Below, in pieces: positions 10,044 to 54,194 of a stretch of 59,501 nucleotides of DNA. The notes beneath the pieces are model-generated. The model saw nothing but the letters and a program-made list of their open reading frames with translations, had not been told where the DNA came from and ran no database searches. The stretch is from Candidatus Thorarchaeota archaeon (GTDB lineage Archaea > Asgardarchaeota > Lokiarchaeia > Sigyniarchaeales > SOKP01): positions 1 through 59,501 of the forward strand of contig JBHLRA010000003.1 of the NCBI GenBank assembly GCA_048883045.1. Direction: 5' to 3'. The position numbers and the translations under genes are program-made. Each line of letters begins with the position of its first letter. Position 1 is the stretch's first letter.

Positions 10044-10069
10044 TACTACTACCTCCAAGGTTTTAGATT

Positions 10070-10822: not shown

Positions 10823-10890
10823 TGACAAATTATTTCGCTTATCCAATAAATTACAACACCTGATATAATACCTAATAAATACATTACCAT
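10819..10890 (-). CDS. Hydrophobic micro-ORF (23 aa)
   Basis: MVMYLLGIISGVVIYWISEIICQ. Starts 2 nt after the upstream stop. Its TGA overlaps the next ATG. Confidence 0.3.
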   Translation of the reverse strand: MVMYLLGIISGVVIYWISEIICQ

Positions 10891-11615: not shown

Positions 11616-12412
11616 TAACTCAATATCAAACTCTTTAAAGTCTCAAAGCTGGCATCTTCATTCACCAACTCCACACCATCAAATTGAGCTGTATCTCTAC
11701 AATCCAATATCTTGACTATAAAATCACTATCTTTTTTATAGCATTCACAATTAACCTGGACTATGTGTGGAAATTTTCTATAACCATCGAGCAATCTTCT
11801 ACCTGTTTTCATTTCCTTTACCTGCCCATTTGGCATAGTATATTTTTTATATTCGTCTTTCATTTCATGGATAGTTATTAAGTTTTTTATAGGTTTGCCT
11901 TCTTTGCGGTCATATACTGATTTGAATAACGCAGCAAGTTCTATATATACTGGACCATACAAAAATGGATCAACTTGGCCCAATTTACCAAATCGAGCTA
12001 CACAGATTAATTGATAAATTTCCGTAGCATTATCAATTCCAATGGTTTTAATATCATTATCTCTTAAAGCTTCTCGGAAATCAGATTTATAAGTTTCCCA
12101 AATATCAATAGCTTCATCGATATTGTATTTCAAGGGATTACTGGTTTCTGCTTCTGCAGCTTTTCTTGAAATAGCTTTGGATATTTTCTTTATCTCAAGT
12201 GGAATGTGATATTGTTTAAGGTAGATATCTTTTTCTTTTGCAAATTTTTGAGCTACTCCATATGTACCCATATTGGTGCTAAGTAATCCTATTGGCCCCG
12301 GAGCTGTTAAGAGCTGATATGTTCGGCCTTTTTTCTGTTCTCCGCGGTAATCTACTACTAGATTAGGTTCCCGGTGGGTTGTGGCTTTGGTAAAACCTCT
12401 ATTTTGTAACAT
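11615..12412 (-). CDS. Hypothetical protein
   Basis: 265-aa ORF with ATG start. Overlaps the upstream gene by 55 nt. No Walker A motif recognised. Confidence 0.5.
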   Translation of the reverse strand: MLQNRGFTKATTHREPNLVVDYRGEQKKGRTYQLLTAPGPIGLLSTNMGTYGVAQKFAKEKDIYLKQYHIPLEIKKISKAISRKAAEAETSNPLKYNIDEAIDIWETYKSDFREALRDNDIKTIGIDNATEIYQLICVARFGKLGQVDPFLYGPVYIELAALFKSVYDRKEGKPIKNLITIHEMKDEYKKYTMPNGQVKEMKTGRRLLDGYRKFPHIVQVNCECYKKDSDFIVKILDCRDTAQFDGVELVNEDASFETLKSLILS

Positions 12413-13623: not shown

Positions 13624-13624
13624 A

Positions 13625-16976: not shown

Positions 16977-18556
16977 TATAATTTCTCTTGTGGTTCTGGT
17001 ATTGTATTACTTTGCCTCAATAATCTCTTAAACCATCTATGCATAAATCTTTCATTCTTTTTCTTAAACCATAACCAATGATTATCAATAATAGAAGTCT
17101 CGCATCTATCATTCTCAAATCTCCAACCTCTACCACATGCCTGCTCCAAAGTTATCATAGTCATGTTATTATAATAATCCGGGTTTAATTCTCTTCGGAT
17201 CTTGTCAACTTTGCGCCGAGCATCAGGGAAAAATATTTTTGTAATGATTTGGTATTCGCATTCTCGCCCTGGAAAATCATAACCCGTAGTTATAGAAGGT
17301 GATAGTAAAATATTTGGTGGATTATCTTTATTCGATTTAAAATACTGAATCATTTTTTCTCTATCTTTTGAATCATGAATTATCATTTGATCTGAATATT
17401 CACTTTGAGCATAAATTATTTTACAATTATCATAACTAACAGAATGTATTATTCCATTTCTATCTAATCTATTACCTATTATATTATCAATTCTACTTAA
17501 CCAAATTCTATAATCTTGTTCCTTCATTCTATATTTGCCGTAAACTCTCACTGTAGGTATAAAAGTTATAGGATGATTCTTTGCCGGAAAATAGCTATCA
17601 AATTCATAATAAGTAATATCTTCTTTATCTGGCCCAAGATATTCAACCATCCCAGAATTAATTGTAGCTGAAGTTAATAAAATCTGGCTAATATCTTTGA
17701 ATAACATTTCCTCTGCAAAATCCAAAGGTTGTATAGGATCAAATGTCAAAGCTTTGCCTGTGTGTTCTACAACCCACTGTGTCGGATCGGCATCGATAAT
17801 TATATTTGCAAATCTTTGGGCAAAATCACATATTGCCTGAAATCTTTTATCATTTATTTTCTCTCTAAGAATATGTTTGTCTTTTGATATCTGTTCTACA
17901 TAAGCAATTGTTTGTTTACTTATATCTTTTATCCAGGACCAATAATGCTCGTCACCAAGATTATTATCTGGCAAATCAATTTTAAGTATATTTTCACATG
18001 TCCATTGGGTCAATGTTAAACTTAAAGCATCCAACATTTTTGAGGTAGTGTCATGTGCTTCATCACATACCAAGAAATCAATAGGCCCGATAGCTTCAAA
18101 TAATCTCCGATGTTTAAACCAAAAAGCATAATTTGTTATTATTATATTTGAATTCCGCGCCTTAGCTAAATTATCATAATAAGGACACCCAGACTTTTTA
18201 TAGCTACATGCTAGCCCAAATCTACAAGGACCATATTCGCAAGATATCGGGAATAACTGACATTTATATTCATTTTTGCCCATAACTATAGTTGCGCCAG
18301 GTTCCTGGCCAAAATCTCTATATAGTTGGTGTTGTAATCCTTTTGTCGATGTTAATATAGCTGTACGTTTTCCGGATAGAATTGCCGCAGTAATATAATC
18401 AAGAGATTTTCCCCCACCTGTAGGTTTATTTGAGATAGTGAAACGTGTCTCAGGTTGAGATATTAATAATATTGCACGTTCTTGATCCTGCCGCCAGGAG
18501 GTAAATTTAACGGGCAGGCCGAATGCTTCTGGTGGTGGTAGTTGATATTGATTCAT
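16976..18556 (-). CDS. Superfamily-2 DEAH helicase of the Rad3/XPD/DinG type with Fe-S cluster cysteines
   Basis: 526 aa. Walker A KPTGGGKS. DEAH box VCDEAHD. Cys cluster CQLFPISCEYGPCRFGLACSYKKSGC between motifs I and II. Confidence 0.8.
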   Translation of the reverse strand: MNQYQLPPPEAFGLPVKFTSWRQDQERAILLISQPETRFTISNKPTGGGKSLDYITAAILSGKRTAILTSTKGLQHQLYRDFGQEPGATIVMGKNEYKCQLFPISCEYGPCRFGLACSYKKSGCPYYDNLAKARNSNIIITNYAFWFKHRRLFEAIGPIDFLVCDEAHDTTSKMLDALSLTLTQWTCENILKIDLPDNNLGDEHYWSWIKDISKQTIAYVEQISKDKHILREKINDKRFQAICDFAQRFANIIIDADPTQWVVEHTGKALTFDPIQPLDFAEEMLFKDISQILLTSATINSGMVEYLGPDKEDITYYEFDSYFPAKNHPITFIPTVRVYGKYRMKEQDYRIWLSRIDNIIGNRLDRNGIIHSVSYDNCKIIYAQSEYSDQMIIHDSKDREKMIQYFKSNKDNPPNILLSPSITTGYDFPGRECEYQIITKIFFPDARRKVDKIRRELNPDYYNNMTMITLEQACGRGWRFENDRCETSIIDNHWLWFKKKNERFMHRWFKRLLRQSNTIPEPQEKL

Positions 18557-19110
18557 ATATTACCCCATTGTACAGCCATTGCTTCAGCTATGCCCTTATA
18601 TGTTCTACTTCTATTTTTCCATCTATCCTTATTTGGTGACATTTTGAATACTTTTTGCTCACGCCCACTTACAACATTTGTCGGTTTTAACTTTGGTAAA
18701 TTCTTTAACCAAAGACAAGTAGCTTTAGTTTCACCATGCCCAAACATCCATGGCTGGATTATTTGATCTGGTTTTCTGTATTTTGTGCTCATAACCCCTA
18801 TTGGATTTTCAATTGCTATTTTTGATATTGGAGCATGTACTAATTTCATAAAGAAATTGATCGCTTCTTTTTGCTCTGTTTGCTTATATTTGAACCAACG
18901 GCCCCCACTTCTGGCCAGATGTGTGCAGGGGGGAAAAGCAATTAACATATCCCAGCTATCATTTAACCACCATCCTACATTACCTTCTAAATGATAACCC
19001 TTTTCTGCACTTTCTGTGGGTAGTAAATCACAACTCCAAGCATCGTGTTTTTTTAAACGGAATGCATCGCGTACTATACCAGAAAATTCGCAAGCAACCA
19101 ATATTCGCAT
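18553..19110 (-). CDS. Short DNA (cytosine-5) methyltransferase-like protein
   Basis: 185 aa. N-terminal MRILVACEFSG (motif I-like) and FPPCTHLARSG (PC motif IV-like). Too short for a canonical C5-MTase. Confidence 0.4.
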   Translation of the reverse strand: MRILVACEFSGIVRDAFRLKKHDAWSCDLLPTESAEKGYHLEGNVGWWLNDSWDMLIAFPPCTHLARSGGRWFKYKQTEQKEAINFFMKLVHAPISKIAIENPIGVMSTKYRKPDQIIQPWMFGHGETKATCLWLKNLPKLKPTNVVSGREQKVFKMSPNKDRWKNRSRTYKGIAEAMAVQWGNI

Positions 19111-19628: not shown

Positions 19629-20171
19629 TTATTTCTTTTCTTTATATAATAATTCAATATCATCAATAGAATCTAATAATTCTTTATATTCATTCAATAT
19701 TCTTTGTTCATAATGATTTCTCCAGTCCTCATCTTTTAATTCTCTTGCAATTCTTAGTATATCTAAAACATGCCGTGCTGCTCTTCTTGGTAACTTCTTA
19801 CTCTTACAATAAGCAACTCTTTTCCCAAGTTCAATCATAACATCATTAAACCCGGTTAACATTGTCTCTTCTATCATAAGATTTCTCATGCTCTCTATGC
19901 GCTTTAAATCCGATGTGGGTAGCTGTTTATCCGGGATAGTATCTATCCAAGTAAACAACATATATAAAGCATGTCTTACAATCTGTCCCCGGTTTATATA
20001 TGGATATTTTTTAAACTTAACCATGCGGTCCATTTGGGCTATCCAAGTTTTTGGCAAAGGTGTTTTTTCTGTGACATTATGGCCTTTGTCATCATCTGCA
20101 CCTGGGATAATCCACTCATTTGCATAGTCAAGGATTAATTCACGATATACATGTTTACCATTATCTGACAA
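19629..20171 (-). CDS. Hypothetical protein (TTG start)
   Basis: 180-aa ORF. TTG start preceded by AAGGGGG. Confidence 0.45.
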   Translation of the reverse strand: MSDNGKHVYRELILDYANEWIIPGADDDKGHNVTEKTPLPKTWIAQMDRMVKFKKYPYINRGQIVRHALYMLFTWIDTIPDKQLPTSDLKRIESMRNLMIEETMLTGFNDVMIELGKRVAYCKSKKLPRRAARHVLDILRIARELKDEDWRNHYEQRILNEYKELLDSIDDIELLYKEKK

Positions 20172-20184
20172 TCAAAATACCCCC

Positions 20185-20421
20185 TTATAATCTCCAAATT
20201 AAAAGACTTACAGAAGATACCAAACCACCAAAAAATCCACCAATAGCTGAATATGTTTTGCTCCAAAAAGAATGGCTTTTGAGTTTCTTGTCTATCTCAT
20301 CAAGTCTTTCAAGTATTTTTTCGTCTTGTTTACACATTTTATAAGTTCTATCATATAATACGCCAAGTTTAGACTTATCATCCATACAATCAAATGTTTC
20401 GCGGCTTACTTCACCGTTCAT
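20185..20421 (-). CDS. Small protein with C-terminal TM segment (holin-like topology, unproven)
   Basis: 78 aa. C-terminal YSAIGGFFGGLVSSVSLLIW. Confidence 0.4.
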   Translation of the reverse strand: MNGEVSRETFDCMDDKSKLGVLYDRTYKMCKQDEKILERLDEIDKKLKSHSFWSKTYSAIGGFFGGLVSSVSLLIWRL

Positions 20422-20987
20422 ATTTCCTTCAACTCCTTTAATAATTCTTTTTTTAGGGCCAATCTTTGCTTATTGCTATTGCCAAATTTAAGTTTATTAA
20501 TAGCTTTTTTTAATTTTAAACTAATACAAGCACGTGTGCAATGCATAATTTCTGCTATATCTTTTAATGATCTTGATTTACCATCAAAACCATAATATAA
20601 TTTTATGAGATTTATTTCAGCATAAGTTAAACATTGGCTCATTAATTTATTAAGTAAATCAAAAATTTTATCTAATTGTGATTCATCTTTTATTTTTTCT
20701 GGTATATATAAATCAAGTAATATATTATTATCAATATGTGTTTTTCTATATTCATCTACTATAGCCCATTTTAGATTATTACGTATATGAGCTGCAACAT
20801 AAGCTCGGAAATCTGGATCATTATCTATATTTATTTTTTTCTTATATGTACTGATAGCTTTGAGTATAGCCAAAAAACCTATTTGGAATAGTTCTTCTTG
20901 GTCATATTCTTTAAAATCATCATATAATATTTTATATAGGATTTTAGTATATGCCATTGCTATTTCATTACGTTCTTCTATCGTCAT
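20418..20987 (-). CDS. Sigma-70 family-like transcription factor
   Basis: 189 aa. Region-2-like LFQIGFLAILKAISTY. Region-4-like HTH SRSLKDIAEIMHCTRACISLKLKKAINKLK. Confidence 0.6.
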   Translation of the reverse strand: MTIEERNEIAMAYTKILYKILYDDFKEYDQEELFQIGFLAILKAISTYKKKINIDNDPDFRAYVAAHIRNNLKWAIVDEYRKTHIDNNILLDLYIPEKIKDESQLDKIFDLLNKLMSQCLTYAEINLIKLYYGFDGKSRSLKDIAEIMHCTRACISLKLKKAINKLKFGNSNKQRLALKKELLKELKEI

Positions 20988-20989
20988 AA

Positions 20990-21175
20990 TTATCTTTTAA
21001 AAATTTCTTCTATTTCTTTATTTATTAGAAAATTACTTAAACATTCTTTTGAACATATTGGGGGTTCAATGGGCAAACCTTGACAACTACAATCTCGTCC
21101 TGAGCAACAAAATCTAGGTATATAATTATCAACTGGCTTATCACAAATTATACAATAATATTTCATTACGTTCAT
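20990..21175 (-). CDS. Small Cys-rich protein (zinc-ribbon-like)
   Basis: 61 aa with 10 Cys (YCIICDK...FCCSGRDCSCQG...ICSKEC). Confidence 0.45.
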   Translation of the reverse strand: MNVMKYYCIICDKPVDNYIPRFCCSGRDCSCQGLPIEPPICSKECLSNFLINKEIEEIFKR

Positions 21176-21186
21176 CTATTGTCACT

Positions 21187-21339
21187 TTATCTGCCCTTCA
21201 AAACATTTTGTAGATAATTTAATTCTAATTTACTTAATTCTCTATGATAAGTCAGACAATACAAACAATCTTTGCAAAATAATAATCTAATATTTTCTAT
21301 AGTAACTTCTATACAATTAGTATGTCTACATTTATCCAT
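21187..21339 (-). CDS. Small Cys-rich protein (not in ORF track)
   Basis: 50-aa ORF MDKCRHTNCIEV...FCKDCLYCLTYH.... Its ATG overlaps the upstream stop as TAATG. Confidence 0.4.
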   Translation of the reverse strand: MDKCRHTNCIEVTIENIRLLFCKDCLYCLTYHRELSKLELNYLQNVLKGR

Positions 21340-22556
21340 TATATTAATCCCGGTAATATTTTGTCATACCAATCTTCTATTGACAGTTTTTGTTCAGCTA
21401 CTATTTTGAGTCTATGCGCTATACATTCTTTATTTGTTTTTATATCATCCAACATTCCTTTTAATACTTCCCATTTATCACCCACTTCTGCACGATATTT
21501 TATATATTTCTCTGCTATTTCTGGACCACCAAACATATAAGTAGCAAGTATTCTATTTCTTGCCATGTCGTCATAATACCAATTATAACCCCGGGAAATA
21601 TATTTATTGGCATAATGATAGCATGGTTCTCCAGGATAAATCCATTTATTTTTCCCAAGAATAGCTAAAGTAAAATTTATGAAATGCTCACCTCCACCAT
21701 AGACACCTAATTCTTTGGGCCAACCTCCCAATAAGTCGTACAATCCCCTCTCCATAAACATGAAGCAGGTTGACATGCATGGCACTTTATATGGTTGACT
21801 AAAGCTTTTTCTGTATTTTGTAAATGAGTAGTGATATTCTCCAGCATCTCTGGCGTTAATTTCATTCCAGGGAAGGACACAGTTTTTCCGTCGGTTGTAA
21901 TCTTGCACGTCTTTTTCATTCATGCCTCCTTTGAATTTATATATTAATTCCCCACCTTGCCGTTCGCACATATAAGCTATTGGGATATGTAAAGTGCCAT
22001 TGAGTCTTTTATAACTATCAGCGTAATAAAAGAAAGCTTTTCGGATACTACTTTGACTAGGGATTATATGTGCATCACAAAAGAAAAGAATATCACCTGT
22101 GGAAGCTGCAACACCTGCATTTTTGGCTTGCCAGTGAGAAAGTTTTTTATCATAAGTTATATATTTTAGCCATGGCCTACAACCCCCTGCAAGCTCTTTC
22201 ATGCGGGGTGTGCCTGGATCTTGTGTACGATGAATATCATAGCCTTTATCTAATAAATCTTTAATATTAACCAATGCCTCTTTATATGGAACCTGTAATT
22301 CAGGATATAGAGATAATGCATTTTGCACACGTTGTCCAAAATTATTGATAAAATCTTCAATTAGAATTGCATTCGGATATTTTTCCCCCCGTTTTACTGT
22401 TTGTTGTGCTGCTTCTTCACACCAGTTATCAATAAGTATAATTTCAAAATCATGCCCAACATGTACAACTGATCTAAGCTCATTCCACAAAGCTTGTACT
22501 GTGAATTCAATTTGAGGATATTCTATGCAATATGGGATTATGACAGAGAGTTTCAT
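21339..22556 (-). CDS. GT-A fold (family 2-like) glycosyltransferase with DxH motif
   Basis: 405 aa. N-terminal KLSVIIPYC...EIILIDNWC. LFFCDAH (DxH). Confidence 0.7.
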   Translation of the reverse strand: MKLSVIIPYCIEYPQIEFTVQALWNELRSVVHVGHDFEIILIDNWCEEAAQQTVKRGEKYPNAILIEDFINNFGQRVQNALSLYPELQVPYKEALVNIKDLLDKGYDIHRTQDPGTPRMKELAGGCRPWLKYITYDKKLSHWQAKNAGVAASTGDILFFCDAHIIPSQSSIRKAFFYYADSYKRLNGTLHIPIAYMCERQGGELIYKFKGGMNEKDVQDYNRRKNCVLPWNEINARDAGEYHYSFTKYRKSFSQPYKVPCMSTCFMFMERGLYDLLGGWPKELGVYGGGEHFINFTLAILGKNKWIYPGEPCYHYANKYISRGYNWYYDDMARNRILATYMFGGPEIAEKYIKYRAEVGDKWEVLKGMLDDIKTNKECIAHRLKIVAEQKLSIEDWYDKILPGLI

Positions 22557-22684
22557 AAAAGCTCCTTAATCTGGGCTATCTGCACCTCTAGGCTTACAAT
22601 CTTGTGTATACACACCCCAGCCACTACACACCCAAGAATTAACAGAAAATAGATAAACATATTTATCATAATAAGGATATTTCA

Positions 22685-23458
22685 TTATTTATTCCCTTTC
22701 ACTTTTATATATTCTGTAAACCAAGCCTTACTTCCCTTTTTCCTGTATCCGTTTTTAATCATCCATGGCCGGCCAATATCTCTCACTATAGGACCTTTAC
22801 CTCTCATACCCCATACACCATATCTATTAAGGTCTTGAAATAAATGTTTAAATTTTTGGTTTTTGCCTTTGATTTGTTTCTCTGGATTACGATTAGGATT
22901 AAGCTGGGGTGCAATTTCATTAATAAAAGATTGTCTAATAAGAGATGGATGGCCAGTAAAACCCAATAAGCCTCGTTCATTTGGTGGTATTTCATAAAAT
23001 ATACCATTCCAGGGTATATATTTATTCCAATTTTTTGTCCAATAAGTACCCCCCTTGAAAGCATTAAGGCGTAATATTTGCAAAGTTGGGAATTTTTGCA
23101 TAATTCTAATAAGATTGAGCAAATCTACAGATTGTAATAATTCCCAATCATCCTCAAGATGGAAAGTGAAATCAGCAGGAGTAGCATTACAACACCATGT
23201 ACGCCAAAAAGCTTTTCCAAAATGTGCTTTAATCGGTTCATGAATACCTATATCACTTTTTGGAAACATTTTTCTAAATATATATCTGGTTTCTTCTTTT
23301 GTGCCCTCTCCAATTGGATCTAAATTAATATATATACCAATTTTTAATCTTGGATCTTTTTCCATTGCTGGATAAAACATCTTCTCACAAAAGCTTTTTA
23401 ATACTCTTTCATGTAATTCTGGCCGTCGTATTGCTGTCATTGTTATATTAATGATCAT
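22685..23458 (-). CDS. Putative GT-A-like glycosyltransferase
   Basis: 257 aa. HLEDDWELL acidic motif. Located inside the glycosyltransferase cluster. The call is weak. Confidence 0.35.
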   Translation of the reverse strand: MIINITMTAIRRPELHERVLKSFCEKMFYPAMEKDPRLKIGIYINLDPIGEGTKEETRYIFRKMFPKSDIGIHEPIKAHFGKAFWRTWCCNATPADFTFHLEDDWELLQSVDLLNLIRIMQKFPTLQILRLNAFKGGTYWTKNWNKYIPWNGIFYEIPPNERGLLGFTGHPSLIRQSFINEIAPQLNPNRNPEKQIKGKNQKFKHLFQDLNRYGVWGMRGKGPIVRDIGRPWMIKNGYRKKGSKAWFTEYIKVKGNK

Positions 23459-23637
23459 AATATTTCCCTTAATTTTGATTCAGATGTTGTTAAAAATGAA
23501 TATAATAATTTATTTTCATGCCATAATTCTACTACCATATCAGATAATCTATTATCAATTATTCGTATATTAAATTCATTCTTTTTTAAGTTTATATTTT
23601 TTATATACGAGTTATGACATTTTAATTTTATTTCCAC
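23455..23637 (-). CDS. Hypothetical small protein (GTG start)
   Basis: 60-aa ORF. The start codon is GTG. Confidence 0.35.
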   Translation of the reverse strand: MEIKLKCHNSYIKNINLKKNEFNIRIIDNRLSDMVVELWHENKLLYSFLTTSESKLREIL

Positions 23638-24278
23638 TTTTCTAACCTTTCAAAATACATAAGATTTTGATAATATGCTTTGATGCCTTTTTTATTTCGC
23701 CATTTTTGCCATTTAAATTGTAATAAAGTTTCTACAGGTCTTATTTGTTGTAAAGTATTATCTACATATTCATCGATCAAAATGTCTGGTCTTATATAAT
23801 TTTTATCTTTAAATTTTTGTTCCCAATATTCTTTTGGTTGACAATTATGATGATGTATTCCACCTTGTCCCGGACCTGCTGCTGAAAATAAAATCCTATC
23901 TGATAATGAATATAAATTATCTAAGAAAATATTTGTGTATTCTGGCTCTATGTGTTCAGCAACTTCAAAGCAAATAGCAAGATCAAATTTTCTGAAAGTA
24001 AACGGATGTTCTATTTTATCTTTTCGTAAATCATATATCCAAATCCTATCAAAATTTTCTACATCAGATAATGCATTAACCGTGCCCTCAATACCAAATG
24101 TTTGTATATTTCTATTAATAAATCCTTTAACAAGATCCCCATTACCACAGCCTATATCAATTACACTTTTAGGTTTTAAAACATCAATTATAGCATCACA
24201 AACAATAGGTATCCGCCAAGCTAAAGATTTACGCCTAGTAAAGAATTTTTTTGAATAAGCTTTGTCTAGATTATACAT
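23628..24278 (-). CDS. Class I SAM-dependent methyltransferase
   Basis: VIDIGCGNGDL (motif I) and CFEVAEHIEP. The track start at 24296 is GTG. ATG 24278 overlaps the stop of micro-ORF 24278..24340 as TAATG. Confidence 0.7.
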   Translation of the reverse strand: MYNLDKAYSKKFFTRRKSLAWRIPIVCDAIIDVLKPKSVIDIGCGNGDLVKGFINRNIQTFGIEGTVNALSDVENFDRIWIYDLRKDKIEHPFTFRKFDLAICFEVAEHIEPEYTNIFLDNLYSLSDRILFSAAGPGQGGIHHHNCQPKEYWEQKFKDKNYIRPDILIDEYVDNTLQQIRPVETLLQFKWQKWRNKKGIKAYYQNLMYFERLEKWK

Positions 24279-24340
24279 TATGCTATTAAGCTCCACATAA
24301 ATAATATACCTAATATAAACCCAAATATAAAAAGCATCAT
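24278..24340 (-). CDS. Hydrophobic micro-ORF (20 aa)
   Basis: MMLFIFGFILGILFMWSLIA. ATGA overlap with the upstream GT stop and TAATG overlap with the downstream ATG. Confidence 0.3.
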   Translation of the reverse strand: MMLFIFGFILGILFMWSLIA

Positions 24341-25509
24341 TTTAATTTCCCCAAATTTTCCAATACTGTTTTAAAATCACCAGATTGAACATTCTTTATA
24401 GCATTAATCAAACTTGCCATTCTTGGCAATGCAACCTCCCACAAACCATTTACAGAATGATACCATTTGACTAATTCTGATCTATATATATTAAAAGACA
24501 TCCAATTTGTCGGTATCTTTGCCCAAGCCCTCTCAATTGCCTTTTCCCAATCCAGAATATAATGACTATTACATATAGTTACAAATTCATTTTCCTGCAT
24601 CCATGGACTATATCTTTTAGGATCTTTTATCATTATAGGAATACCACATGATAAAGCTTCTAATACACTTCGGTCATTTTGCCCCCCAGGGCCAGCATGA
24701 ATTAGAAGCTTGGAGTTGTTCATAAGTTTAGCAAGACAAGATCTTTTTTGCGCCCCAGGTTTATATAACCAGATCGGCCAGGATTTATTTATTAGATCAT
24801 TTGTTTTGGCCCGGATCATTCCTCCTGGCATTATGTAATGAAGATCTTTGAATTTTTTGTCTTTTGCGGCTAAGGCATTGCAAGCTTGAAGTGCCAAGAA
24901 TTGACCTTTTTTGGTATGAATGTGGGAGGCACCCAACATAATGTCATATTTGTGTTGCGCGGGTATTATTGGCTTGAAGATATATTCATTTACAGGTTTG
25001 CGATAAGGAAAAACTAATCTTTCTTTTTTATTTTTTATATTAAAATAAAAATCTGTCCAGGTATCTTTTTCTTCAGGAATTAAATCATTTAATATAATAT
25101 CCCAATATGGCCAATGACCATGATTTGTATTTGCACGGTAATATAACTTCCAATATTCCTTTTTATCTAATTTATTCAAAAATGGAAGCCATGATCTAAA
25201 TCCACCTCTAAAAAATAATACATCTCTTTTTGTGGCTACATTATTAAAGCATTCTATTGTTGGAACGCAATATATTGTACTCGTCGTCGTAGGCCTTAAA
25301 GTTCCATTTCCCCTTTTTGAATCTATAATATGATATACATGATCAACAGTACCAGTTACAGCTAATAAATCCAACAATGCAAATACACCATCGGATTGAA
25401 GATTAATAGCAAATTTATTGGTTGCAGGCTGTTCTAATTCAGATAAAGAAATAGAGCGGTTGCAGGGTTGATCACTCACATAGAAAAAGATTAGATTCAT
25501 TATATCCAT
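24337..25509 (-). CDS. GT-B fold glycosyltransferase-like protein
   Basis: 390 aa. C-terminal HAGPGGQNDRSVLEALSCGIPIM resembles the GT-B nucleotide-sugar-binding segment. An alternative in-frame ATG at 25500 overlaps the upstream stop. Confidence 0.5.
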   Translation of the reverse strand: MDIMNLIFFYVSDQPCNRSISLSELEQPATNKFAINLQSDGVFALLDLLAVTGTVDHVYHIIDSKRGNGTLRPTTTSTIYCVPTIECFNNVATKRDVLFFRGGFRSWLPFLNKLDKKEYWKLYYRANTNHGHWPYWDIILNDLIPEEKDTWTDFYFNIKNKKERLVFPYRKPVNEYIFKPIIPAQHKYDIMLGASHIHTKKGQFLALQACNALAAKDKKFKDLHYIMPGGMIRAKTNDLINKSWPIWLYKPGAQKRSCLAKLMNNSKLLIHAGPGGQNDRSVLEALSCGIPIMIKDPKRYSPWMQENEFVTICNSHYILDWEKAIERAWAKIPTNWMSFNIYRSELVKWYHSVNGLWEVALPRMASLINAIKNVQSGDFKTVLENLGKLK

Positions 25510-26876
25510 CCTCTACTCGCAGCCATTATTGGAGCATAGTAATACTTATACAATGCATCTAAATTATAACTTTTTATGAAGTGATTTTTTGATCTCAAAG
25601 CTTTGTTCAAATCAAATTCATGTAAAATAACCTTAGCTATTTCTTTCAAATAAGCTGGCAAATCAGGAGCATTAAAAGTCACTTCATGGCTTCCCATGGC
25701 AAAGAATAAAGCATTAAAATCTGTTATTTCTTTCATAACATCAAGAGATTTATTGAGGACCAATAAATTACCAAATAAAGCAGCTTCCGCAATTGCAAGC
25801 CCAAATGTCTCTTCTTTTGTGAGACTAATATAAATATTTGTATAGTGGAGCAGATCAAATATTAAATCATGACTTATTCCAACCTCACATTTACCTTTAT
25901 CAAAATCACTTGTAAAGAATAAATCTTTATTTGGTATAAGTCCCAGATCAATAGCTGCTTTTTTATAGCGGTCAACTTTATCACGATATTTATCAACATT
26001 ACACCATTGATTCGCAATTATCAAACAAACTTCCCGCCCTAAGCGTTTCATCTCTGCAAAGATATGGATATTTTCTAAAACTCTTTTGGACTCAAATCTA
26101 TCTACTGCAGCCATATATAATTGCTTGATATCTGCTGTCAATAGCCCTGGACACCAATCCAAAAACTTTAATGTTTGATCTGAATTTAACTGCCCAAATG
26201 TCCGGAAATCTTTAGGGTGGGGTATTACCAGTACATCTTTTTTCCATCCTTTGAATTGTTCCGCGCAACGTAAAGAATCCGACTCGTTCGGATATACAAG
26301 TTTATGCTGGCCCCCATATAAAGCAATATTCCAATAGTCGCGACCATTTGGGCCAACATTGGGAACACTATGAATCCAGTGCATAAAACGGGTATCAGGT
26401 AACTCTTTTGAAGCTTCAGCACAGGCTAGGCCGTATGGTAGATTCCAGCCCTGAAAAATCCAGTCATGAGTAAAAGCCAACTTGATCTCAAGTCGTCTAA
26501 ATTCTTTCCGAAGCATTTGGGCAGTATTATTTTTTAATAATAATAATTCTGGTATCTTTTTTGCTTCTGTGGGGTCTGCTGGGATAGTTACTGTTTGACC
26601 ATTGTTTGTTTTGAAACTAAAACCTTCTTTAAGTTTCCGGGCATAGTCTAAACTGAATTGCTGTAACGATTGAAAATCGAATAAATGCCCCTTGGGAACT
26701 TTCTTTTCAAGAATCACACCTTCAGGTAATGGTTCTGTATCTTCGTATGTTTCTAACACATATAGATGGACCTCATGCCCGTTTTTTATCAGCATTGTTG
26801 CTTGGTCTTTTGCAATACCTACCAGGGAATAACCGCGTCTAAAATCACCGAAGTTTGTTAAGATAGCGACTTTCAA
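25500..26876 (-). CDS. GT4-like (GT-B) glycosyltransferase
   Basis: 458 aa. N-terminal (TTG)KVAILTNFG...GHEVHLYV. EETFGLAIAEAALFG (E-x7-E motif). Confidence 0.75.
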   Translation of the reverse strand: MKVAILTNFGDFRRGYSLVGIAKDQATMLIKNGHEVHLYVLETYEDTEPLPEGVILEKKVPKGHLFDFQSLQQFSLDYARKLKEGFSFKTNNGQTVTIPADPTEAKKIPELLLLKNNTAQMLRKEFRRLEIKLAFTHDWIFQGWNLPYGLACAEASKELPDTRFMHWIHSVPNVGPNGRDYWNIALYGGQHKLVYPNESDSLRCAEQFKGWKKDVLVIPHPKDFRTFGQLNSDQTLKFLDWCPGLLTADIKQLYMAAVDRFESKRVLENIHIFAEMKRLGREVCLIIANQWCNVDKYRDKVDRYKKAAIDLGLIPNKDLFFTSDFDKGKCEVGISHDLIFDLLHYTNIYISLTKEETFGLAIAEAALFGNLLVLNKSLDVMKEITDFNALFFAMGSHEVTFNAPDLPAYLKEIAKVILHEFDLNKALRSKNHFIKSYNLDALYKYYYAPIMAASRGWI

Positions 26877-27172
26877 TTATTTTGCCTCCCATGACTGAAT
26901 TTGTTTCTTATCCTCTTTAACCATGATATTTTCTTTAAATACCTTGGATCAATGTTTTTTAAATCATCTTCTAATATTGTCAAATCATTACATATAAATT
27001 CGATCTGATAAACTCTTTGCTTCATATGCACAAACTGCGCCACATTAACCTTAATTCCTGGTTTATTTCGCCATTTAGTAAAAACCTGCCACACATCAGA
27101 AGGAATTATGTCATAACAAATCAAACTGATTGCATTGTTTTTTACAAGACGTTTATGCAATTTTTTATTCAT
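26873..27172 (-). CDS. Hypothetical protein (99 aa)
   Basis: The true start is taken as ATG 27172 (MNKKLHKRLV...). The upstream part of track ORF 26873..27370 is read-through of the stop-free repeat array. Confidence 0.55.
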   Translation of the reverse strand: MNKKLHKRLVKNNAISLICYDIIPSDVWQVFTKWRNKPGIKVNVAQFVHMKQRVYQIEFICNDLTILEDDLKNIDPRYLKKISWLKRIRNKFSHGRQNN

Positions 27173-27423
27173 GACCCTGACCATGCTCCTGATCCTGATC
27201 TTGCCCATGCTCCTGACCCTGACCTTGCCCATGACCATGCCCCTGACCCTGACCATGACCATGCTCCTGATCCTGACCCTGACCCTGACCATGACCTTGC
27301 TCCTGACCATGACCATGACCATGACCTTGACCTTGACCATGACCTTGCTCCTGACCATGACCATGACCATGATCTTGACCTTGACCTTGTTTTTTTGGAT
27401 AATTGTCTTTTACTGATAAACAT
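27169..27423 (-). CDS. Candidate Ser-X dipeptide-repeat peptide, copy 1 (84 aa); coding frame and strand uncertain
   Basis: Conserved ATG: MFISKRQLSKKTRSRSRSWSWSWSGARSW.... The TGA overlaps the ATG of 26873..27172 (ATGA). Confidence 0.35.
   Translation of the reverse strand: MFISKRQLSKKTRSRSRSWSWSWSGARSWSRSRSWSWSWSGARSWSGSGSGSGAWSWSGSGAWSWARSGSGAWARSGSGAWSGS
27173..27389. repeat. Imperfect hexanucleotide array 1 (minus-strand unit G[G/A][T/G]CA[T/A/G])
   Basis: About 36 units punctuated by CAGGAGCA. Open in 5 of 6 frames. Confidence 0.9.
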
Positions 27424-27425
27424 AC

Positions 27426-27644
27426 TCATGACCCTGACCATGACCTTGCTCCTGACCCTGACCATGACCTTGCTCCTGACCATGACCATGACCTTGCTCC
27501 TGACCATGACCATGACCATGATCTTGACCTTGCTCCTGACCATGACCATGACCATGACCTTGACCTTGACCATGACCTTGCTCCTGACCATGACCATGAC
27601 CATGACCTTATTCTTTTGGATAATTGTCTTTTATTAATAAACAT
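27426..27644 (-). CDS. Candidate Ser-X dipeptide-repeat peptide, copy 2 (72 aa); coding frame and strand uncertain
   Basis: Track ORF MFINKRQLSKRIRSWSWSWSGARSW.... Its stop is 2 nt before the copy 1 ATG. Confidence 0.35.
   Translation of the reverse strand: MFINKRQLSKRIRSWSWSWSGARSWSRSRSWSWSWSGARSRSWSWSWSGARSWSWSGARSWSGSGARSWSGS
27429..27608. repeat. Imperfect hexanucleotide array 2
   Basis: Same unit as array 1, about 30 units. Confidence 0.9.
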
Positions 27645-27663
27645 AATATATAATCCTATAATA

Positions 27664-27933
27664 TTATGGTATTACTTTAGTTATAAAATATGATTCTATT
27701 GAATTAAGTCTGATACATAATTCATTAGTAGGTAATTTTTGACAATCATTCCATGATTTGTTTTGCCATGCGCCGGTTTCATAGACAATGTAGGGATTTT
27801 TTAAGATCAAAAAATTATCATTTATAGCAATCAATGTACCTGTGTAATGATAAATTCCGCAAAAAATGAACAGTTGTTGATCCAGATATACTTCTAATTC
27901 TTGTTTAGTTTCAGTTTCAATTATTCTTTTCAT
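27664..27933 (-). CDS. Hypothetical protein
   Basis: 89-aa ORF with a strong SD AAAGGGAGG. Lies between arrays 3 and 2. Confidence 0.55.
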   Translation of the reverse strand: MKRIIETETKQELEVYLDQQLFIFCGIYHYTGTLIAINDNFLILKNPYIVYETGAWQNKSWNDCQKLPTNELCIRLNSIESYFITKVIP

Positions 27934-27960
27934 AAATGCCTCCCTTTTTGGTGTTAAATA

Positions 27961-28128
27961 TTATCCTGATCTTGACCATGACCTTGACCTTGACCCTGAC
28001 CATGACCATGCTCCTGATCCTGACCCTGACCCTGACCATGATCTTGACCTTGACCATGCTCCTGACCTTGACCTTGACCCTGATCTTGACCCTGCTCTTC
28101 TATATAATTTCCTTCTATTGATAAACAT
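27961..28128 (-). CDS. Candidate Ser-X dipeptide-repeat peptide, copy 3 (55 aa); coding frame and strand uncertain
   Basis: ATG 9 nt after the stop of 28138..28980: MFINRRKLYRRAGSRSGSRSRSGAWSRSRSW...; TAA stop. Confidence 0.3.
   Translation of the reverse strand: MFINRRKLYRRAGSRSGSRSRSGAWSRSRSWSGSGSGSGAWSWSGSRSRSWSRSG
27964..28096. repeat. Imperfect hexanucleotide array 3
   Basis: Same unit, about 22 units. Confidence 0.9.
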
Positions 28129-29515: not shown

Positions 29516-30376
29516 CTATGGTCCAGGTGGGGGAGGGGTTGTACTAGTTGTGGTATTAGATGTGGTGCTAGTACAAGTGCTGGAAAGTGTTGATGTTGTT
29601 GAAGTTTCCGTGCTTGTCGTGGTAGATTCCGACGAAATTGTCGAGGTCGAGGATTCTGTTGAAGAACAGGAACTTGTACTTGATTCGGTTGACTGGGAAC
29701 TTGTCGACGAAATTGTCGAAGAACAGGAACTTGTACTGGAAATCGTTGAAATCGTTGAACTACAGGAACTTGTAGAACTCTGAGTGGAAAGTGTAGATGT
29801 TGAGGATTCAGTAGAACTACAACTTGATGTCGACGAAATTGTCGAAGTTGATGATTCAGTACTTGAACAACTCGAAGTTGTTGAAATTGTTGAACTACAA
29901 GAACTTGTAGTTGATTCTGTACTCGCTGTGGAACAAGAACTTGAACAAGAACTTGAACATGTTGATGTACAAGTACTTGAGCTTGTAGTACTTAGTGTAC
30001 TCGCTGTACTTAGTGTACTTATTGTAGAACAAGAACTTGAACAACTTGAGCTACAAGAACTTGTACAAGATGAGGTAGAGCATGTTGAGGTACAACTTGA
30101 GGTACAACTTGTGGTGCAAGTCGTTGAACATGTTGTAGTACAAGTACTTGTACAAGAACTTGTGCAGCTTGAAGTCGAACAGGTGCTTGTCGTTGTGCTG
30201 GTACATGTACTGGTCGATGTAGTCGTCGTCGTAGTAGAAAACCCAAATAATTCATATACTTGCTCTAATGTAGCTTGCTTTGTAGTTCCTGTATGATTTT
30301 GGTGAACTATTATTCTATCTTGCCAACGCGCTTTATCAACAATTGGATATGCGTTAAAATCACTCATTTTGGGCAT
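29516..30376 (-). CDS. Ser/Thr/Cys-tract protein (45-aa N-terminal domain plus 240-aa low-complexity tract ending PPPPGP); candidate fibre
   Basis: 286-aa ORF. AGGGAGG SD. The tract is almost entirely S, T and C. Confidence 0.7.
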   Translation of the reverse strand: MPKMSDFNAYPIVDKARWQDRIIVHQNHTGTTKQATLEQVYELFGFSTTTTTTSTSTCTSTTTSTCSTSSCTSSCTSTCTTTCSTTCTTSCTSSCTSTCSTSSCTSSCSSSCSSSCSTISTLSTASTLSTTSSSTCTSTCSSSCSSSCSTASTESTTSSCSSTISTTSSCSSTESSTSTISSTSSCSSTESSTSTLSTQSSTSSCSSTISTISSTSSCSSTISSTSSQSTESSTSSCSSTESSTSTISSESTTTSTETSTTSTLSSTCTSTTSNTTTSTTPPPPGP

Positions 30377-32529: not shown

Positions 32530-34026
32530 TTATGACCAATCAATATATAAAGCTGCTTTGTAACTTGCTCCCCGATCTATATTAGAGAAACTTCTAAATG
32601 CCCCTGTTGATGATCCATTTTCCATGACTAATATTTGAATATCATTTCCAGATGCCCAACCCCCACGATTAACAATTTCCTGTATAATAGTTTTAATATC
32701 CGGAGAATCATATGCAGTATCTAAAGTCCAGGCCCCCTCATTATTCCAATTAACACTTGCTGTTGTTAAATTCATTGCCACAACATCTGCACAACTTGTT
32801 GGTGTTGTAGCTGTGTCTTCGTCTTCACCTTTCATTAACCATGCAATGCTGGTTCCTGAATCTGAATCTCCGGCTGTTATTGTTATTTTAGCTGAATCAA
32901 TCGTGGCAGAATTGGGAATATTTATATTTTCAAATTTACATCCCCACGACCAAATCCAATCTCCTGCACCATCACGTCCTATATCATCAATAGAATCTGT
33001 ATTATTAAATGTAACTTCAGTAGAATTAAATACCCAATCATCATTACTGGAATCTGGGTAAAATGTACCTTCTGTTGGTGGGGGAGGTGTACTGGAAGTT
33101 GTTGAATTTGTTGATAAAGTGCTGGCTGAAGATGCCGTGGAACTCTGGGTTGATGTCGACGATTCTGTCGAAATTGTGCTGGAGCAAGTGGAAGTTTGAG
33201 TCGTGGAAGACTGGCTGGAAACCGTTGATTCCGTGGAGGTACAAGAACTAGTGCTGGTACAAGTGCTTGAATTTGTTGATTGTGTACTGATTGTAGATTC
33301 CGATGATTTTGTCGAGGACTGGCTGGAGGTCGACGAAATTGTCGAACAACTAGAACTACAACTGGAAGTAATTCGGGTGGTGCTGGTGCTTGTAGATGAC
33401 TGGCTGGAAATAGTTGATGCTGTAGTGGTTTCAGTGGTACTACTCGTAGATGTACAACTGGTGCTGGATTCCGATGACTGGCTGGAACCTGTTGATATTG
33501 TTGAGCTACAGGTTGACGTACAAGATGTAGTATGTGTTGTGGTGCAGGTACTAGATATAGTGGTGTGACTGGAAGTGCTTGTGCAGCTTGAGGTTAGTGT
33601 TGTCGAGCAAGAACTTGAACAGGAACTTGTACAAGTGCTAGTCGTAGTGGTTGTTGTAGTTGTGGGTACAACCCAATCTGACAGAGAAGATTCAACCATA
33701 AAAGTAATCGTAACTAAACCATGTTCGTTTCTTAACTGACTTAAATTTCCTTGATATGCACCATCCGGGGTCGTAAGCGTCAATACATAATAATTTTTAT
33801 GTAGAGTATAAAGAGTATTATATTGTTCTTGTGTCACATTAGCCTGGAACGTAAATGTACGATCTCCATGTGACCATCCATTGTCCCGGATGTTTATACC
33901 TGTATCAAGTGTTGCCGTTTTGTTGACTCGTCTTGATAAGTCTTGATAGTTGGAACCTGACTCCAACACATCTAAGTTTATATAATCATCCAGGGAAAAA
34001 GTTTGCGCTGATATTGATATTTTCAT
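32530..34026 (-). CDS. Distal-tail-position protein with internal 197-aa Ser/Thr/Cys tract and C-terminal beta-sandwich-like domain
   Basis: 498 aa. Its start overlaps the tape-measure stop. The tract is aa 121..317 (33076..33666) and ends TPPPP. Confidence 0.65.
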   Translation of the reverse strand: MKISISAQTFSLDDYINLDVLESGSNYQDLSRRVNKTATLDTGINIRDNGWSHGDRTFTFQANVTQEQYNTLYTLHKNYYVLTLTTPDGAYQGNLSQLRNEHGLVTITFMVESSLSDWVVPTTTTTTTTSTCTSSCSSSCSTTLTSSCTSTSSHTTISSTCTTTHTTSCTSTCSSTISTGSSQSSESSTSCTSTSSTTETTTASTISSQSSTSTSTTRITSSCSSSCSTISSTSSQSSTKSSESTISTQSTNSSTCTSTSSCTSTESTVSSQSSTTQTSTCSSTISTESSTSTQSSTASSASTLSTNSTTSSTPPPPTEGTFYPDSSNDDWVFNSTEVTFNNTDSIDDIGRDGAGDWIWSWGCKFENINIPNSATIDSAKITITAGDSDSGTSIAWLMKGEDEDTATTPTSCADVVAMNLTTASVNWNNEGAWTLDTAYDSPDIKTIIQEIVNRGGWASGNDIQILVMENGSSTGAFRSFSNIDRGASYKAALYIDWS

Positions 34027-53340: not shown

Positions 53341-53445
53341 TTAATAAATATATTCTTCCTCTTCTTCATCCCAATAATTATTTTTTTCATCATCTTCATC
53401 ATCTTCCAACCATAAATCTTCTGGGTCTATATAATCTTCTATCAT
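53341..53445 (-). CDS. Highly acidic 34-aa micro-ORF abutting terL
   Basis: MIEDYIDPEDLWLEDDEDDEKNNYWDEEEEEYIY. ATGA overlap with the upstream stop. Its TAA is directly followed by the terL ATG. Confidence 0.45.
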   Translation of the reverse strand: MIEDYIDPEDLWLEDDEDDEKNNYWDEEEEEYIY

Positions 53446-54194
53446 AACACTTTCTCCTCTACTTTATTTATAAAATCCTGGCCAATTACATTTATTACGT
53501 CTTGTTTATCTGAATCTGACCATTTTTCCCAATTTGGCATTTTTCCACGTTTAGCGGTATTAAAACGAATAGATCTAACAAAATCATAATATGTTCGAGG
53601 CGTAAATCTTAATCCCAAAAATCCAACCATTTTATACCAACCATTGCCCATTTCACTGTATAGATCTTTTATATCAAATATACAATCAGCAGAATCTATA
53701 TAACATGATATCTTTTCTTTCCAATACCATGCAAGTTGTTTTTTTCCTGTATCAATTTTTGGATCATTACTTTTGAGCCAACTTACACCATTCTCATATC
53801 CTCGATTAGCCATAGAAGGAATAAAAGTTCTATAATCACGTACAAGACCAACTATTTTGCAACCAGGAAAAGTTTTCCGCAATGGTTCAGCCAAAGAGAA
53901 TAAATTATGATTACATTCAATATAATAGCATTTTTTATAGAGAATCCTGGCACAGCGCACATTCGCCATACGAGCTTTGCGACATGCCCGGACTGCATCA
54001 TTAAATTTAAGTTTTTTGGCATGATACAATAAACCGATCGGTTTTATCATAGGTGGCGGTTCATGTACTGCTAAGACTGAATTGTAACAAACATTTAATG
54101 CCCATGCAAGCCATTGTGTTGCTGTGCGACCAGTTGATAAGAAGAAGATTGGTGTTACAGGGCCTGAGATATGTTTATTTTGGAGCATAATCAT
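53442..54194 (-). CDS. Sulfotransferase-fold protein (paralogue of 10070..10822)
   Basis: 250 aa. IFFLSTGRTATQWL...HEPPP...YIECNH...GLVRD...AWYWKEKI parallels IFTLTTGRSGTALL...HEPKP...YIETCH...ILHRD...CYWYTQEI. Confidence 0.45.
   Translation of the reverse strand: MIMLQNKHISGPVTPIFFLSTGRTATQWLAWALNVCYNSVLAVHEPPPMIKPIGLLYHAKKLKFNDAVRACRKARMANVRCARILYKKCYYIECNHNLFSLAEPLRKTFPGCKIVGLVRDYRTFIPSMANRGYENGVSWLKSNDPKIDTGKKQLAWYWKEKISCYIDSADCIFDIKDLYSEMGNGWYKMVGFLGLRFTPRTYYDFVRSIRFNTAKRGKMPNWEKWSDSDKQDVINVIGQDFINKVEEKVL

Follow-up and report, generated by a model that had tools for sequence, protein, structure and literature searches.

To our knowledge, experiments have so far demonstrated glycosylation of virions by phage-encoded enzymes in no more than a few mycobacteriophages. 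Among the giant viruses, the capsid glycans of the chlorovirus PBCV-1, which contain O-methylated sugars, and the fibrils of mimivirus are both products of virus-encoded machinery. In bacteria, the GT4-family glycosyltransferases GtfA/GtfB and SdgA/SdgB glycosylate Ser-rich repeat adhesins (serine-rich repeat proteins and SD repeats, respectively) in the cytoplasm before these are displayed on the cell surface. Here we describe an island of five glycan-enzyme genes in a 59,501-nucleotide stretch of DNA (contig JBHLRA010000003.1 of assembly GCA_048883045.1, filed under a Candidatus Thorarchaeota archaeon), which is referred to below as the window. The window is an uncultured tailed phage with a GC content of about 33% and nearly all of its genes on the minus strand. 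The island encodes two GT-A and two GT-B glycosyltransferases and an S-adenosylmethionine (SAM)-dependent methyltransferase, all of them soluble; as a cassette it is conserved among phages and horizontally mobile. To judge from the genes that accompany this cassette and from structural models, the phage probably covers its virions with sugar brushes like those of mucins.

The nearest functional precedent is provided by the mycobacteriophages Che8, Corndog and Myrna, in which phage-encoded enzymes O-glycosylate capsid and tail-tube proteins (Freeman et al. 2023, as described in PMC12363180, PMC12619734 and PMC13445384). As the accounts in those papers present it, soluble glycosyltransferases of the phage modify its capsid and tail proteins inside the host cytoplasm, which is what we infer from the genes of the window, and the acceptors are C-terminal parts of the virion proteins. 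The latter has a parallel in the candidate acceptors described below, in which a Ser/Thr tract forms the C-terminal tail of 47 of the 90 distinct carriers. The enzymes themselves appear to be unrelated; Che8 gp108-110 gave no hmmsearch match with four of the family profiles from the window and no BLASTP match below E = 0.19. The capsid and tail-tube proteins of Che8 end without long Ser/Thr tracts, whereas the candidate acceptors in the window have tracts of 200-560 residues. The window also differs in having a GT27-like candidate initiating enzyme, five glycosyltransferases, three or four methyltransferases and a doubtful sulfotransferase. Finally, its hosts are not actinobacterial, as indicated by the low GC content and by homologues in metagenome-assembled genomes labelled Deltaproteobacteria and Thermodesulfobacteriota.

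The closest mechanistic analogue is eukaryotic mucin-type O-glycosylation, which is initiated by polypeptide N-acetylgalactosaminyltransferases (ppGalNAc-Ts; family GT27). The 405-residue GT-A enzyme of the island resembles these enzymes in its GT-A fold, its D-x-H motif with a distal His and its (W)GGE motif, and the candidate acceptors, like the tandem repeats of mucins, are long Ser/Thr-rich low-complexity tracts. It differs from them in its sequence (12-15% identity) and in its predicted location, which is cytoplasmic and not the Golgi; no ricin-type lectin domain was found in the Pfam search, nor was a membrane anchor or transmembrane segment. In addition, its structural model shows a helical hairpin inserted at residues ~63-104, and its C-terminus forms a helical bundle.

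Three other comparisons are instructive. The cassette shares with GtfA/GtfB and SdgA/SdgB a GT-B enzyme of the GT4 type with an E-x7-E motif and repetitive Ser-rich candidate acceptors, a likeness at the family level only, but the window lacks accessory Sec genes, its candidate acceptors are virion proteins, and its dipeptide-repeat open reading frames (ORFs) are unlinked to the cassette. As with the giant viruses, the virus supplies its own glycosyltransferases and sugar methyltransferases and would decorate its surface apart from the secretory machinery of the host; however, those are eukaryotic viruses with other enzymes and linkages, and mimivirus R699 is only a structural neighbour of the 257-residue GT-A protein of the island (rank 50 among its Foldseek neighbours). 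The Gtr systems and TarP of Staphylococcus aureus prophages likewise involve a phage-borne GT-A enzyme, and TarP is both a structural and a profile neighbour of island proteins. However, the targets of those enzymes are envelope polymers, and they usually work in lysogens together with membrane partners, whereas the cassette of the window is multi-enzyme, entirely soluble and tied to virion genes with Ser/Thr tracts. Neither Pfam families nor transmembrane segments indicative of a Gtr-type flippase, a polyprenol-phosphate glycosyltransferase or a membrane serotype glycosyltransferase were found in either of the two enzyme groups of the window.

The five-gene cassette

The five genes described by the initial annotation of the window are all present (Table 1); they are consecutive on the minus strand, with overlaps of 1-10 nt, and are translationally coupled. 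The GT2-like protein and the methyltransferase matched Pfam families above the cut-offs, and both GT-B proteins fell below them. Searches of the PDB with single sequences returned only noise (spike-protein fragments, PRP19), and so family profiles were needed; the conserved residues given below were read from 46-51 homologues per family. Transmembrane segments were predicted in none of the ten enzymes of the island and of the second group discussed below. It is almost certain that the island consists of four glycosyltransferases and a methyltransferase that belong to a conserved cassette.

The recurrence of the cassette was followed by tblastn of all window proteins in 86 loci that contain a homologue of the 458-residue GT4-like protein, its anchor gene; 79 of these loci came from IMG/VR and the rest from assemblies. 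The D-x-H GT-A enzyme is encoded in 60 of them, the 390-residue protein in 49, the 257-residue GT-A protein in 48 and the methyltransferase in 45. Two genes of the second group are also frequent, the GT2-like gene (31 loci) and the Methyltransf_24 gene (26 loci). Backbone genes, i.e., polymerase, helicase and tape measure, are present in at most eight of the 86. When loci were selected independently by the D-x-H enzyme gene, 59 of 72 had the GT4-like gene. The contexts of the cassette are unrelated to each other: L009 is a lambda-like phage that is syntenic, L012 is a Mu-like phage, and in L011 the cassette lies where a prophage ends beside bacterial genes. In L002 and L011, homologues of the distal GT2-like and Methyltransf_24 genes are interleaved with the island genes. 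Because the distal homologues lie inside the cassette in these two loci, we predict that the two enzyme groups of the window serve one pathway. A Logan contig (L001, SRR30758841_1146) is nearly identical to the window and has the same island. No match was found in 50,697 phage records, either by blastn with the island or by tblastn with the 458- and 405-residue proteins, and full-text literature searches found no account of the cassette.

The 257-residue protein, which had been annotated as GT-A-like with an EDDW motif, matched nothing by sequence in Pfam, PHROG or the PDB. Its AlphaFold model (predicted local distance difference test, pLDDT, 93.5) has the GT-A fold, with 216 Foldseek matches at E <= 1e-3; RmlT, K4CP, TarP, TarS and WrtF match at E 3.5e-7 to 2e-5. 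E102 and D104 are invariant in the family and D103 is nearly so, at the DxD position after beta-4. Thus, both the predicted fold and the conserved motif agree with the annotation. The class I methyltransferase is also as annotated, with matches to three Pfam families (Table 1).

The two GT-B proteins are not equally well defined. In the 458-residue family, E356 and E364, which form the E-x7-E motif noted in the initial annotation, are invariant, and many of the 336 homologues match PF00534 or PF13439, in keeping with a GT4-like enzyme. The window protein itself lacks a PF00534 match and matches PF13439 below the cut-off (E = 0.0067); the family profile has a weak match to BshA-type GT4 structures (E ~0.04). 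For the 390-residue protein the gene is present as described, and its family profile matched only C-terminal domains of GT-B enzymes in the PDB (WbaZ, E = 0.0015; CapJ, E = 0.0017), but the match to Pfam Glycos_transf_1 is below the cut-off (E = 0.0047). The family is a closed one with 149 representatives. A GT-B-like protein is therefore plausible, but the assignment is weak. A comparison of the two GT-B families by hhalign gave a probability of only 12.5% and so lends no support to the idea that they are paralogues.

Five more enzyme genes are inserted between terS and terL (Table 1). The initial annotation had listed a further GT2, three methyltransferases and a sulfotransferase-like gene in this region. 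Two of the methyltransferases are well supported and the GT2-like protein is recognized through its homologue in L011, but the remaining methyltransferase and the sulfotransferase-like protein both matched Pfam below the cut-offs. The CmcI/rhamnosyl O-methyltransferase match implies that the predicted product is a methylated sugar; sulfation is doubtful.

The initial annotation also mentioned tiny hydrophobic ORFs between the island genes. The ORF at 24278-24340 does encode a hydrophobic peptide (MMLFIFGFILGILFMWSLIA), but the 39-residue ORF at 22566-22685 is not hydrophobic, and neither has a counterpart in any other cassette locus. Small ORFs of 39, 20, 60, 50 and 99 residues were rejected as parts of the cassette, as they match only the nearly identical contig L001.

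Some of the cassette loci have features of their own. The loci L006-L008 represent a distant version of the cassette, and in L007 the D-x-H GT-A gene is followed by an ORF (13188-14156, plus strand), the N-terminus of which looks by eye like that of a short-chain dehydrogenase of the nucleotide-sugar epimerase/dehydratase type. Putative ORFs of simple periodic sequence also occur in or beside the cassette in some loci. L019 has (Thr-Asp/Glu)n or (Ser-Val)n at 11652-11946, directly after the GT4-like gene, L032 has (SGTK/SVTK)n at 9870-10220 and L006 has (Thr-Tyr)n at 479-574.

A polypeptide GalNAc-transferase-like enzyme

The 405-residue protein was initially annotated as a GT2-like enzyme with an FFCDAH motif. 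It matches the Pfam GT2 family (E = 8.5e-8), and D161 and H163 of the motif are invariant in 47 homologues, as are G287-G288-G289-E290 and H314. When its AlphaFold model (pLDDT 93.5; predicted template modelling score, pTM, 0.89) was compared to the PDB with Foldseek, all of the top 50 matches were ppGalNAc-Ts, with E values of 2e-14 to 6e-11 and query-normalised TM-scores of 0.49-0.60. These matches cover human T1, T2, T4, T7, T10 and T12, Drosophila PGANT9 and Toxoplasma T3. The family profile aligns to ppGalNAc-Ts over both halves of the catalytic domain; in the alignment to TgGalNAc-T3, the DxH corresponds to LDAHCE, the GGGE to WGGEN and H314 to the His of VGHVF. The Gal/GalNAc-T motif is present as an invariant Y286-G-G-G-E290, with Tyr in place of the Trp of WGGEN, and the D-x-H...H metal site is intact. 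By the profile alignment and the Foldseek matches, the enzyme is thus GT27-like in architecture and active site, and it may be a member of GT27 with a specificity for GalNAc.

Ser/Thr tracts as candidate acceptors

The long Ser/Thr(/Cys) tracts of three proteins of the structural module add up to about 1,000 residues (Table 1). The tract of the FII-like protein contains 37% Thr, 37% Ser and 4% Cys. This 812-residue carrier has tandem FII-like domains as well as a hydrophobic N-terminal segment. In the protein encoded directly after the tape measure, the N-terminal 121 residues are conserved at the same place after the tape-measure gene in L009. With 4-10% Cys, the window tracts are unusually rich in this residue, which accounts for 0.9% of the tracts elsewhere among the cassette loci and for 1.6% of the remaining proteins of the phage.

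All of the fetched loci were scanned for tract ORFs, defined as those in which a stretch of 20 residues includes 16 or more Ser/Thr. The controls were 120 IMG/VR loci picked by a random 14-mer; a control scan based on TerL gave no loci. Tract ORFs are present in 61 of the 86 cassette loci (6.67 per 100 kb; 13,035 tract residues) and in four of the 120 random loci (0.38 per 100 kb; 130 tract residues), the latter being shorter, randomly placed and matched neither to tail regions nor to lineages. With redundancy removed by collapsing the GT4-like proteins at 90% identity, the numbers are 49 of 69 versus 4 of 120 (odds ratio 71; Fisher p = 3e-24). The tract ORFs also have a preferred position. 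Of 83 such ORFs, 79 are upstream of the GT4-like gene and four are downstream, with equal amounts of DNA on both sides, and they are nearly always on the same strand; the upstream side is where the structural genes lie. Tract carriers with a recognizable identity include a head decoration protein (phrog_49, 1e-19), a tail-fibre-like protein and a structural protein. In L006-L008, an ORF that consists of a short leader and pure Ser/Thr immediately precedes the GT4-like gene, and it is analogous to the smallest of the three tract proteins in the window.

A dipeptide-repeat module

The repeat region of the window, located between the tail genes and the island, contains (GGTCAN)n arrays, and the Ser frame of these arrays corresponds to three small ORFs. 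The predicted peptides share the leader MFI[NS][KR]R[QK]L, which is conserved, and continue as (Ser-[W/R/G])n; they are 39-44% Ser. In L009 there are at least six such units (19965-21317). Each of them starts at GTG or ATG, has the leader MKRSK, stops at TGA and is equipped with a strong Shine-Dalgarno sequence (GGAGGTGA). A scan of IMG/VR for five array units gave at least 120 loci. Of 53 arrays that contain Trp, 32 have both an ATG close by and a stop where the array ends when read in the Ser frame. The G-H/Q and V-X frames were rejected as coding, as they have such a start and stop in only 2 and 11 of the arrays, respectively. Contigs that are unrelated to each other share leaders such as MNxAxLRTG[FY]D.

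The initial annotation had suggested the dipeptide-repeat ORFs "immediately downstream" of the island as enzyme substrates. In the direction of transcription they are upstream of it, and the co-occurrence patterns argue against them as dedicated substrates of the cassette. Among the 120 listed array loci, cassette enzymes are present in one, and a homologue of the 89-residue ORF of the repeat region is present in 19, nearly always immediately upstream of the array and on the same strand. Conversely, 84 of the 86 cassette loci have no (GGTCAN)n array, the two with arrays being L009 and L010, and in L009 the arrays are ~8.6 kb downstream of the GT4-like gene, after a helicase gene. Given the starts and stops of the Ser frame, and arrays that co-occur with the 89-residue protein and hardly ever with the cassette enzymes, the (Ser-X)n ORFs are, on these comparative grounds, real genes of an independent two-part module and not substrates specific to the cassette.

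The module ORFs encode 45-95 residues with a short basic leader, and the partner family is about 85 residues long with invariant Y30, G32, N38, V50, Y51, G54 and E80. The 89-residue protein had no significant match in Pfam, PHROG or PDB-profile searches, although to the eye its sequence pattern might fit an Sm-like fold, and full-text literature searches found no account of the module. TCA is nearly the sole Ser codon in arrays from diverged phages, a pattern that hints at an additional constraint at the DNA or RNA level. Contig L001 starts inside a (GGTCAN)n array (positions 1-110). The hexamer repeats seem to break short-read assemblies, and so arrays are probably under-represented in contig collections.

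Proposed pathway and alternative explanations

We predict that the cassette enzymes act in the host cytoplasm on the virion proteins of the phage itself, either before or during assembly. The 405-residue GT-A enzyme would start the glycan by placing a sugar, donated by a nucleotide sugar, on the hydroxyl groups of Ser and Thr in the long tracts, the EDD-containing GT-A and the two GT-B enzymes would extend the glycan, and the methyltransferases would O-methylate it. The product would be a dense mucin-like brush on the FII-like head-tail joining protein, on the protein encoded after the tape measure and on a small fibre-like protein. Presumably this brush would confer protease resistance or hydration, or would mediate adhesion to host or environmental surfaces. 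Cytoplasmic O-glycosylation and methylation of the phage's own virion proteins is favoured because of the tract association, the upstream placement of the tract genes, the identity of the named carriers and the lack of transmembrane segments in the enzymes. Hence the proposal of the initial annotation that these enzymes build a methylated glycan on phage proteins is the most plausible one, on evidence that is comparative and structural throughout, and the Ser/Thr/Cys-tract proteins that it singled out are likely acceptors on the same grounds. We consider it reasonably likely that the cassette glycosylates the tract-bearing virion proteins. A more specific version is put forward tentatively, namely that a mobile cassette in hundreds of uncultured tailed phages carries out GT27-started, mucin-type O-glycosylation in the bacterial cytoplasm and places methylated brushes on the Ser/Thr tracts, hundreds of residues in length, of neck, tail-tip and decoration proteins.

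If this prediction is true, virion self-glycosylation would be widespread in environmental phages and would use a more elaborate enzyme set that is not homologous to the known one. The long Ser/Thr tracts of phage structural proteins would be explained, and virions coated with mucin-like glycans would be common and hitherto unrecognised. The ppGalNAc-Ts would gain a branch in viruses of prokaryotes, and a soluble relative of the mucin-type initiating transferases that is compatible with the bacterial cytoplasm would be useful for glyco-engineering. The surface chemistry of virions would have to be reconsidered as well, with regard to adsorption, protease resistance, adherence to mucus and biofilms, and recognition by antibodies.

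Several observations weigh against glycosylation of the virion. Acceptor specificity is not readable from sequence, and the similarity of the 405-residue enzyme to ppGalNAc-Ts is structural only, at the low identity given above. The best PDB sequence-profile match of its family is TarP, a wall-teichoic-acid glycosyltransferase, and the structures nearest to the 257-residue protein are mostly polysaccharide and teichoic-acid transferases (RmlT, TarP, TarS, K4CP). In the prophage L011, the cassette adjoins a membrane O-acyltransferase gene (Acyl_transf_3) of a type typical of serotype conversion. Genes for nucleotide-sugar synthesis were not seen among the window proteins searched, and the case for sulfation consists of two Pfam matches, both below the cut-offs. 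Tract ORFs are missing from the available flanks of 20 of the 69 non-redundant cassette loci. Furthermore, Ser/Thr tracts are common in viral contigs that have no cassette nearby. Only 2 of 120 poly-Thr(12) loci contained a cassette match, and therefore tracts do not imply a cassette, although the test is a weak one, as these loci are short and uncentred. At least two more of them come from contigs with a cassette elsewhere.

The main rival is modification of a host envelope glycan (O-antigen, capsule, teichoic acid or S-layer), in the manner of serotype conversion or TarP, that would block superinfection or change a receptor, with the tracts being unrelated linkers. It keeps this place because of the likeness of the GT-A enzymes to teichoic-acid and polysaccharide transferases and because of the O-acyltransferase gene, which is at the prophage border in L011. 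The end of the tail module is also a typical site for accessory genes, and the family occurs in temperate backgrounds (a Mu-like phage and a prophage). However, envelope modification leaves the tract association (p = 3e-24) unexplained, and the structural neighbours of the 405-residue model, the top 50 of which are protein-directed ppGalNAc-Ts, point elsewhere. No flippase, polyprenol-linked glycosyltransferase or membrane protein was found in the two enzyme groups, and no integrase match was obtained among the window proteins searched; moreover, the enzyme genes bracket the structural genes and are co-oriented with them. We therefore regard this explanation as unlikely. An even less likely one, which we consider improbable, is that these are auxiliary glycosyltransferases that lack a dedicated phage substrate and act on host glycoconjugates or nucleotide-sugar pools, so that their association with tracts reflects shared ancestry or habitat. 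The loci do come from related types of environmental metagenomes, and the controls were unmatched for lineage or genome position. Against this, the cassette is found in unrelated backbones, it keeps a consistent order and orientation relative to the tract genes (79 upstream versus 4 downstream), and its active-site residues are invariant across homologues.

The phage might instead use the enzymes to hypermodify its DNA, with modified bases that are glycosylated and methylated, as a defense against host restriction. The window encodes PAPS-reductase-like and ParB-like proteins as well as a DNA methyltransferase, which are of the type associated with DNA modification, and DNA-glycosylating phage enzymes of the GT-B and GT-A types are well known and diverse (Pyle et al. 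2024, as cited in PMC12619734). However, DNA glycosylation is less likely because no hydroxymethylase-type gene was found (neither a deoxynucleotide (dNMP) hydroxymethylase nor a thymidylate-synthase-like gene was seen among the window proteins searched) and because the CmcI-type methyltransferase belongs to a sugar O-methyltransferase family. The cassette also moves among phages with unrelated replication modules and tracks Ser/Thr-tract virion genes, and we rate modification of DNA as very improbable. The last alternative is that the cassette glycosylates the small (Ser-X)n peptides encoded at 27169-28128, in the manner of SD repeats or glycocins, to yield a glycopeptide and not a modified virion. 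It draws on the three tandem ORFs with their conserved leader and high Ser content beside the island, on the cassette and at least six such ORFs in the related phage L009, and on the fact that GT4-family enzymes glycosylate staphylococcal Ser-X repeats. The co-occurrence counts given above run the other way, with abundant arrays that accompany the 89-residue family and not the cassette, cassette loci that nearly all lack arrays, and a large distance between the two in L009, and the chance that this explanation is correct seems slight indeed.

Gene layout of the phage

The structural module of the window is bracketed by the two glyco-enzyme groups, in the order terS, enzymes, terL through the tail genes, and island (Table 1), and the enzyme genes have the same orientation as the virion genes. 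The closest TerL from a cultured phage is that of Wolbachia phage WO (43% identical). The initial annotation had recognised no integrase, and the window proteins that were compared to PHROGs or Pfam, a set without several small ORFs, gave no integrase match either. A scan of 20.0-30.5 kb for promoters and terminators found sites no more frequent than in shuffled sequence, and Rfam and tRNA scans of the window detected nothing.

Table 1. Features of the window; positions are in nucleotides
Feature	Position	Strand	Evidence or remark
Five-gene island	26876-21339	minus	
ppGalNAc-T-like GT-A, 405 aa, candidate initiating enzyme	21339..22556	minus	Pfam GT2, profile-vs-PDB, AlphaFold/Foldseek
GT-A-fold glycosyltransferase with EDD motif, 257 aa	22685..23458	minus	AlphaFold, Foldseek, conserved residues
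Class I SAM methyltransferase, 222 aa	23628..24296	minus	Pfam Methyltransf_23, _12, _11, all above cut-offs
Orphan GT-B-like protein, 390 aa	24337..25509	minus	Profile-vs-PDB match, weak
GT4-like GT-B glycosyltransferase, 458 aa, cassette anchor gene	25500..26876	minus	Homologue Pfam, E-x7-E
Repeat region	28128-27169	minus	
(Ser-X)n ORFs	27961-28128, 27426-27644, 27169-27423	minus	Packed with ATGA-type overlaps
89-aa ORF of repeat module	27664-27933	minus	
300-aa protein	29040-28138	minus	Signal-like N-terminus
Candidate acceptor, 45-aa N-terminal domain then ~245-residue tract	29516..30376	minus	43% S, 33% T, 10% C
Distal tail genes	After tape measure, down to 29516	minus	
Candidate acceptor encoded directly after tape measure	32530..34026	minus	Internal 203-residue Ser/Thr/Cys tract (residues 113-315)
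Tape measure	36539-34026	minus	
Neck and tail genes	41908-36694	minus	
FII-like protein	44744-42306	minus	Candidate acceptor, two lambda FII-like head-tail attachment domains then 561-residue tract; Pfam PF05354, E = 4.3e-10
Portal, protease, decoration protein, major head protein	50207-45168	minus	
terL	53340-51463	minus	
Second group of five enzyme genes	58054-53442	minus	Between terS and terL
Sulfotransferase-like protein, 250 aa, tentative	53442..54194	minus	Pfam Sulfotransfer_3, E = 1.7e-3, below cut-off
Possible methyltransferase, 172 aa	54552..55070	minus	Pfam Methyltransf_23, E = 1.1e-3, below cut-off
CmcI/rhamnosyl O-methyltransferase family, 233 aa	55052..55753	minus	Pfam PF04989, E = 7.8e-30
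Methyltransf_24 methyltransferase, 193 aa	55896..56477	minus	Pfam E = 2.9e-11
Third GT-A-type (GT2-like) protein, 247 aa	57311..58054	minus	No Pfam match of its own; L011 homologue carries PF00535
terS	58672-58214	minus	
Sigma-like factor, DNA methyltransferase, helicase, ParB-like, PAPS-reductase-like, family A DNA polymerase	From 20987 on	minus	

Several of the other genes in the window deserve mention. The 300-residue protein encoded between the tail genes and the repeat module has a hydrophobic N-terminus that resembles a signal peptide (residues ~18-46) and a low-complexity region rich in Asn, Tyr, Asp and Thr, with no family match. Directly downstream of the island are three genes on the minus strand (20418-20987, 18553-19110 and 20990-21175). 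Their products are, in that order, a protein similar to sigma-70 regions 2/4, with Pfam matches just below the cut-offs, a DNA methyltransferase (phrog_757, 2e-63) and a 61-residue Cys-rich protein (phrog_19268, 1e-11). Further along the minus strand, at 12358-14773, the gene for the PAPS (3'-phosphoadenosine 5'-phosphosulfate)-reductase-like protein (phrog_2302, 7e-90) adjoins that for the ParB-like protein (phrog_2159, 2e-69), a pair that resembles IbrA/IbrB. A second weakly sulfotransferase-like protein of 258 residues, with a Pfam match below the cut-off, is encoded near this pair (10070-10846, minus strand).

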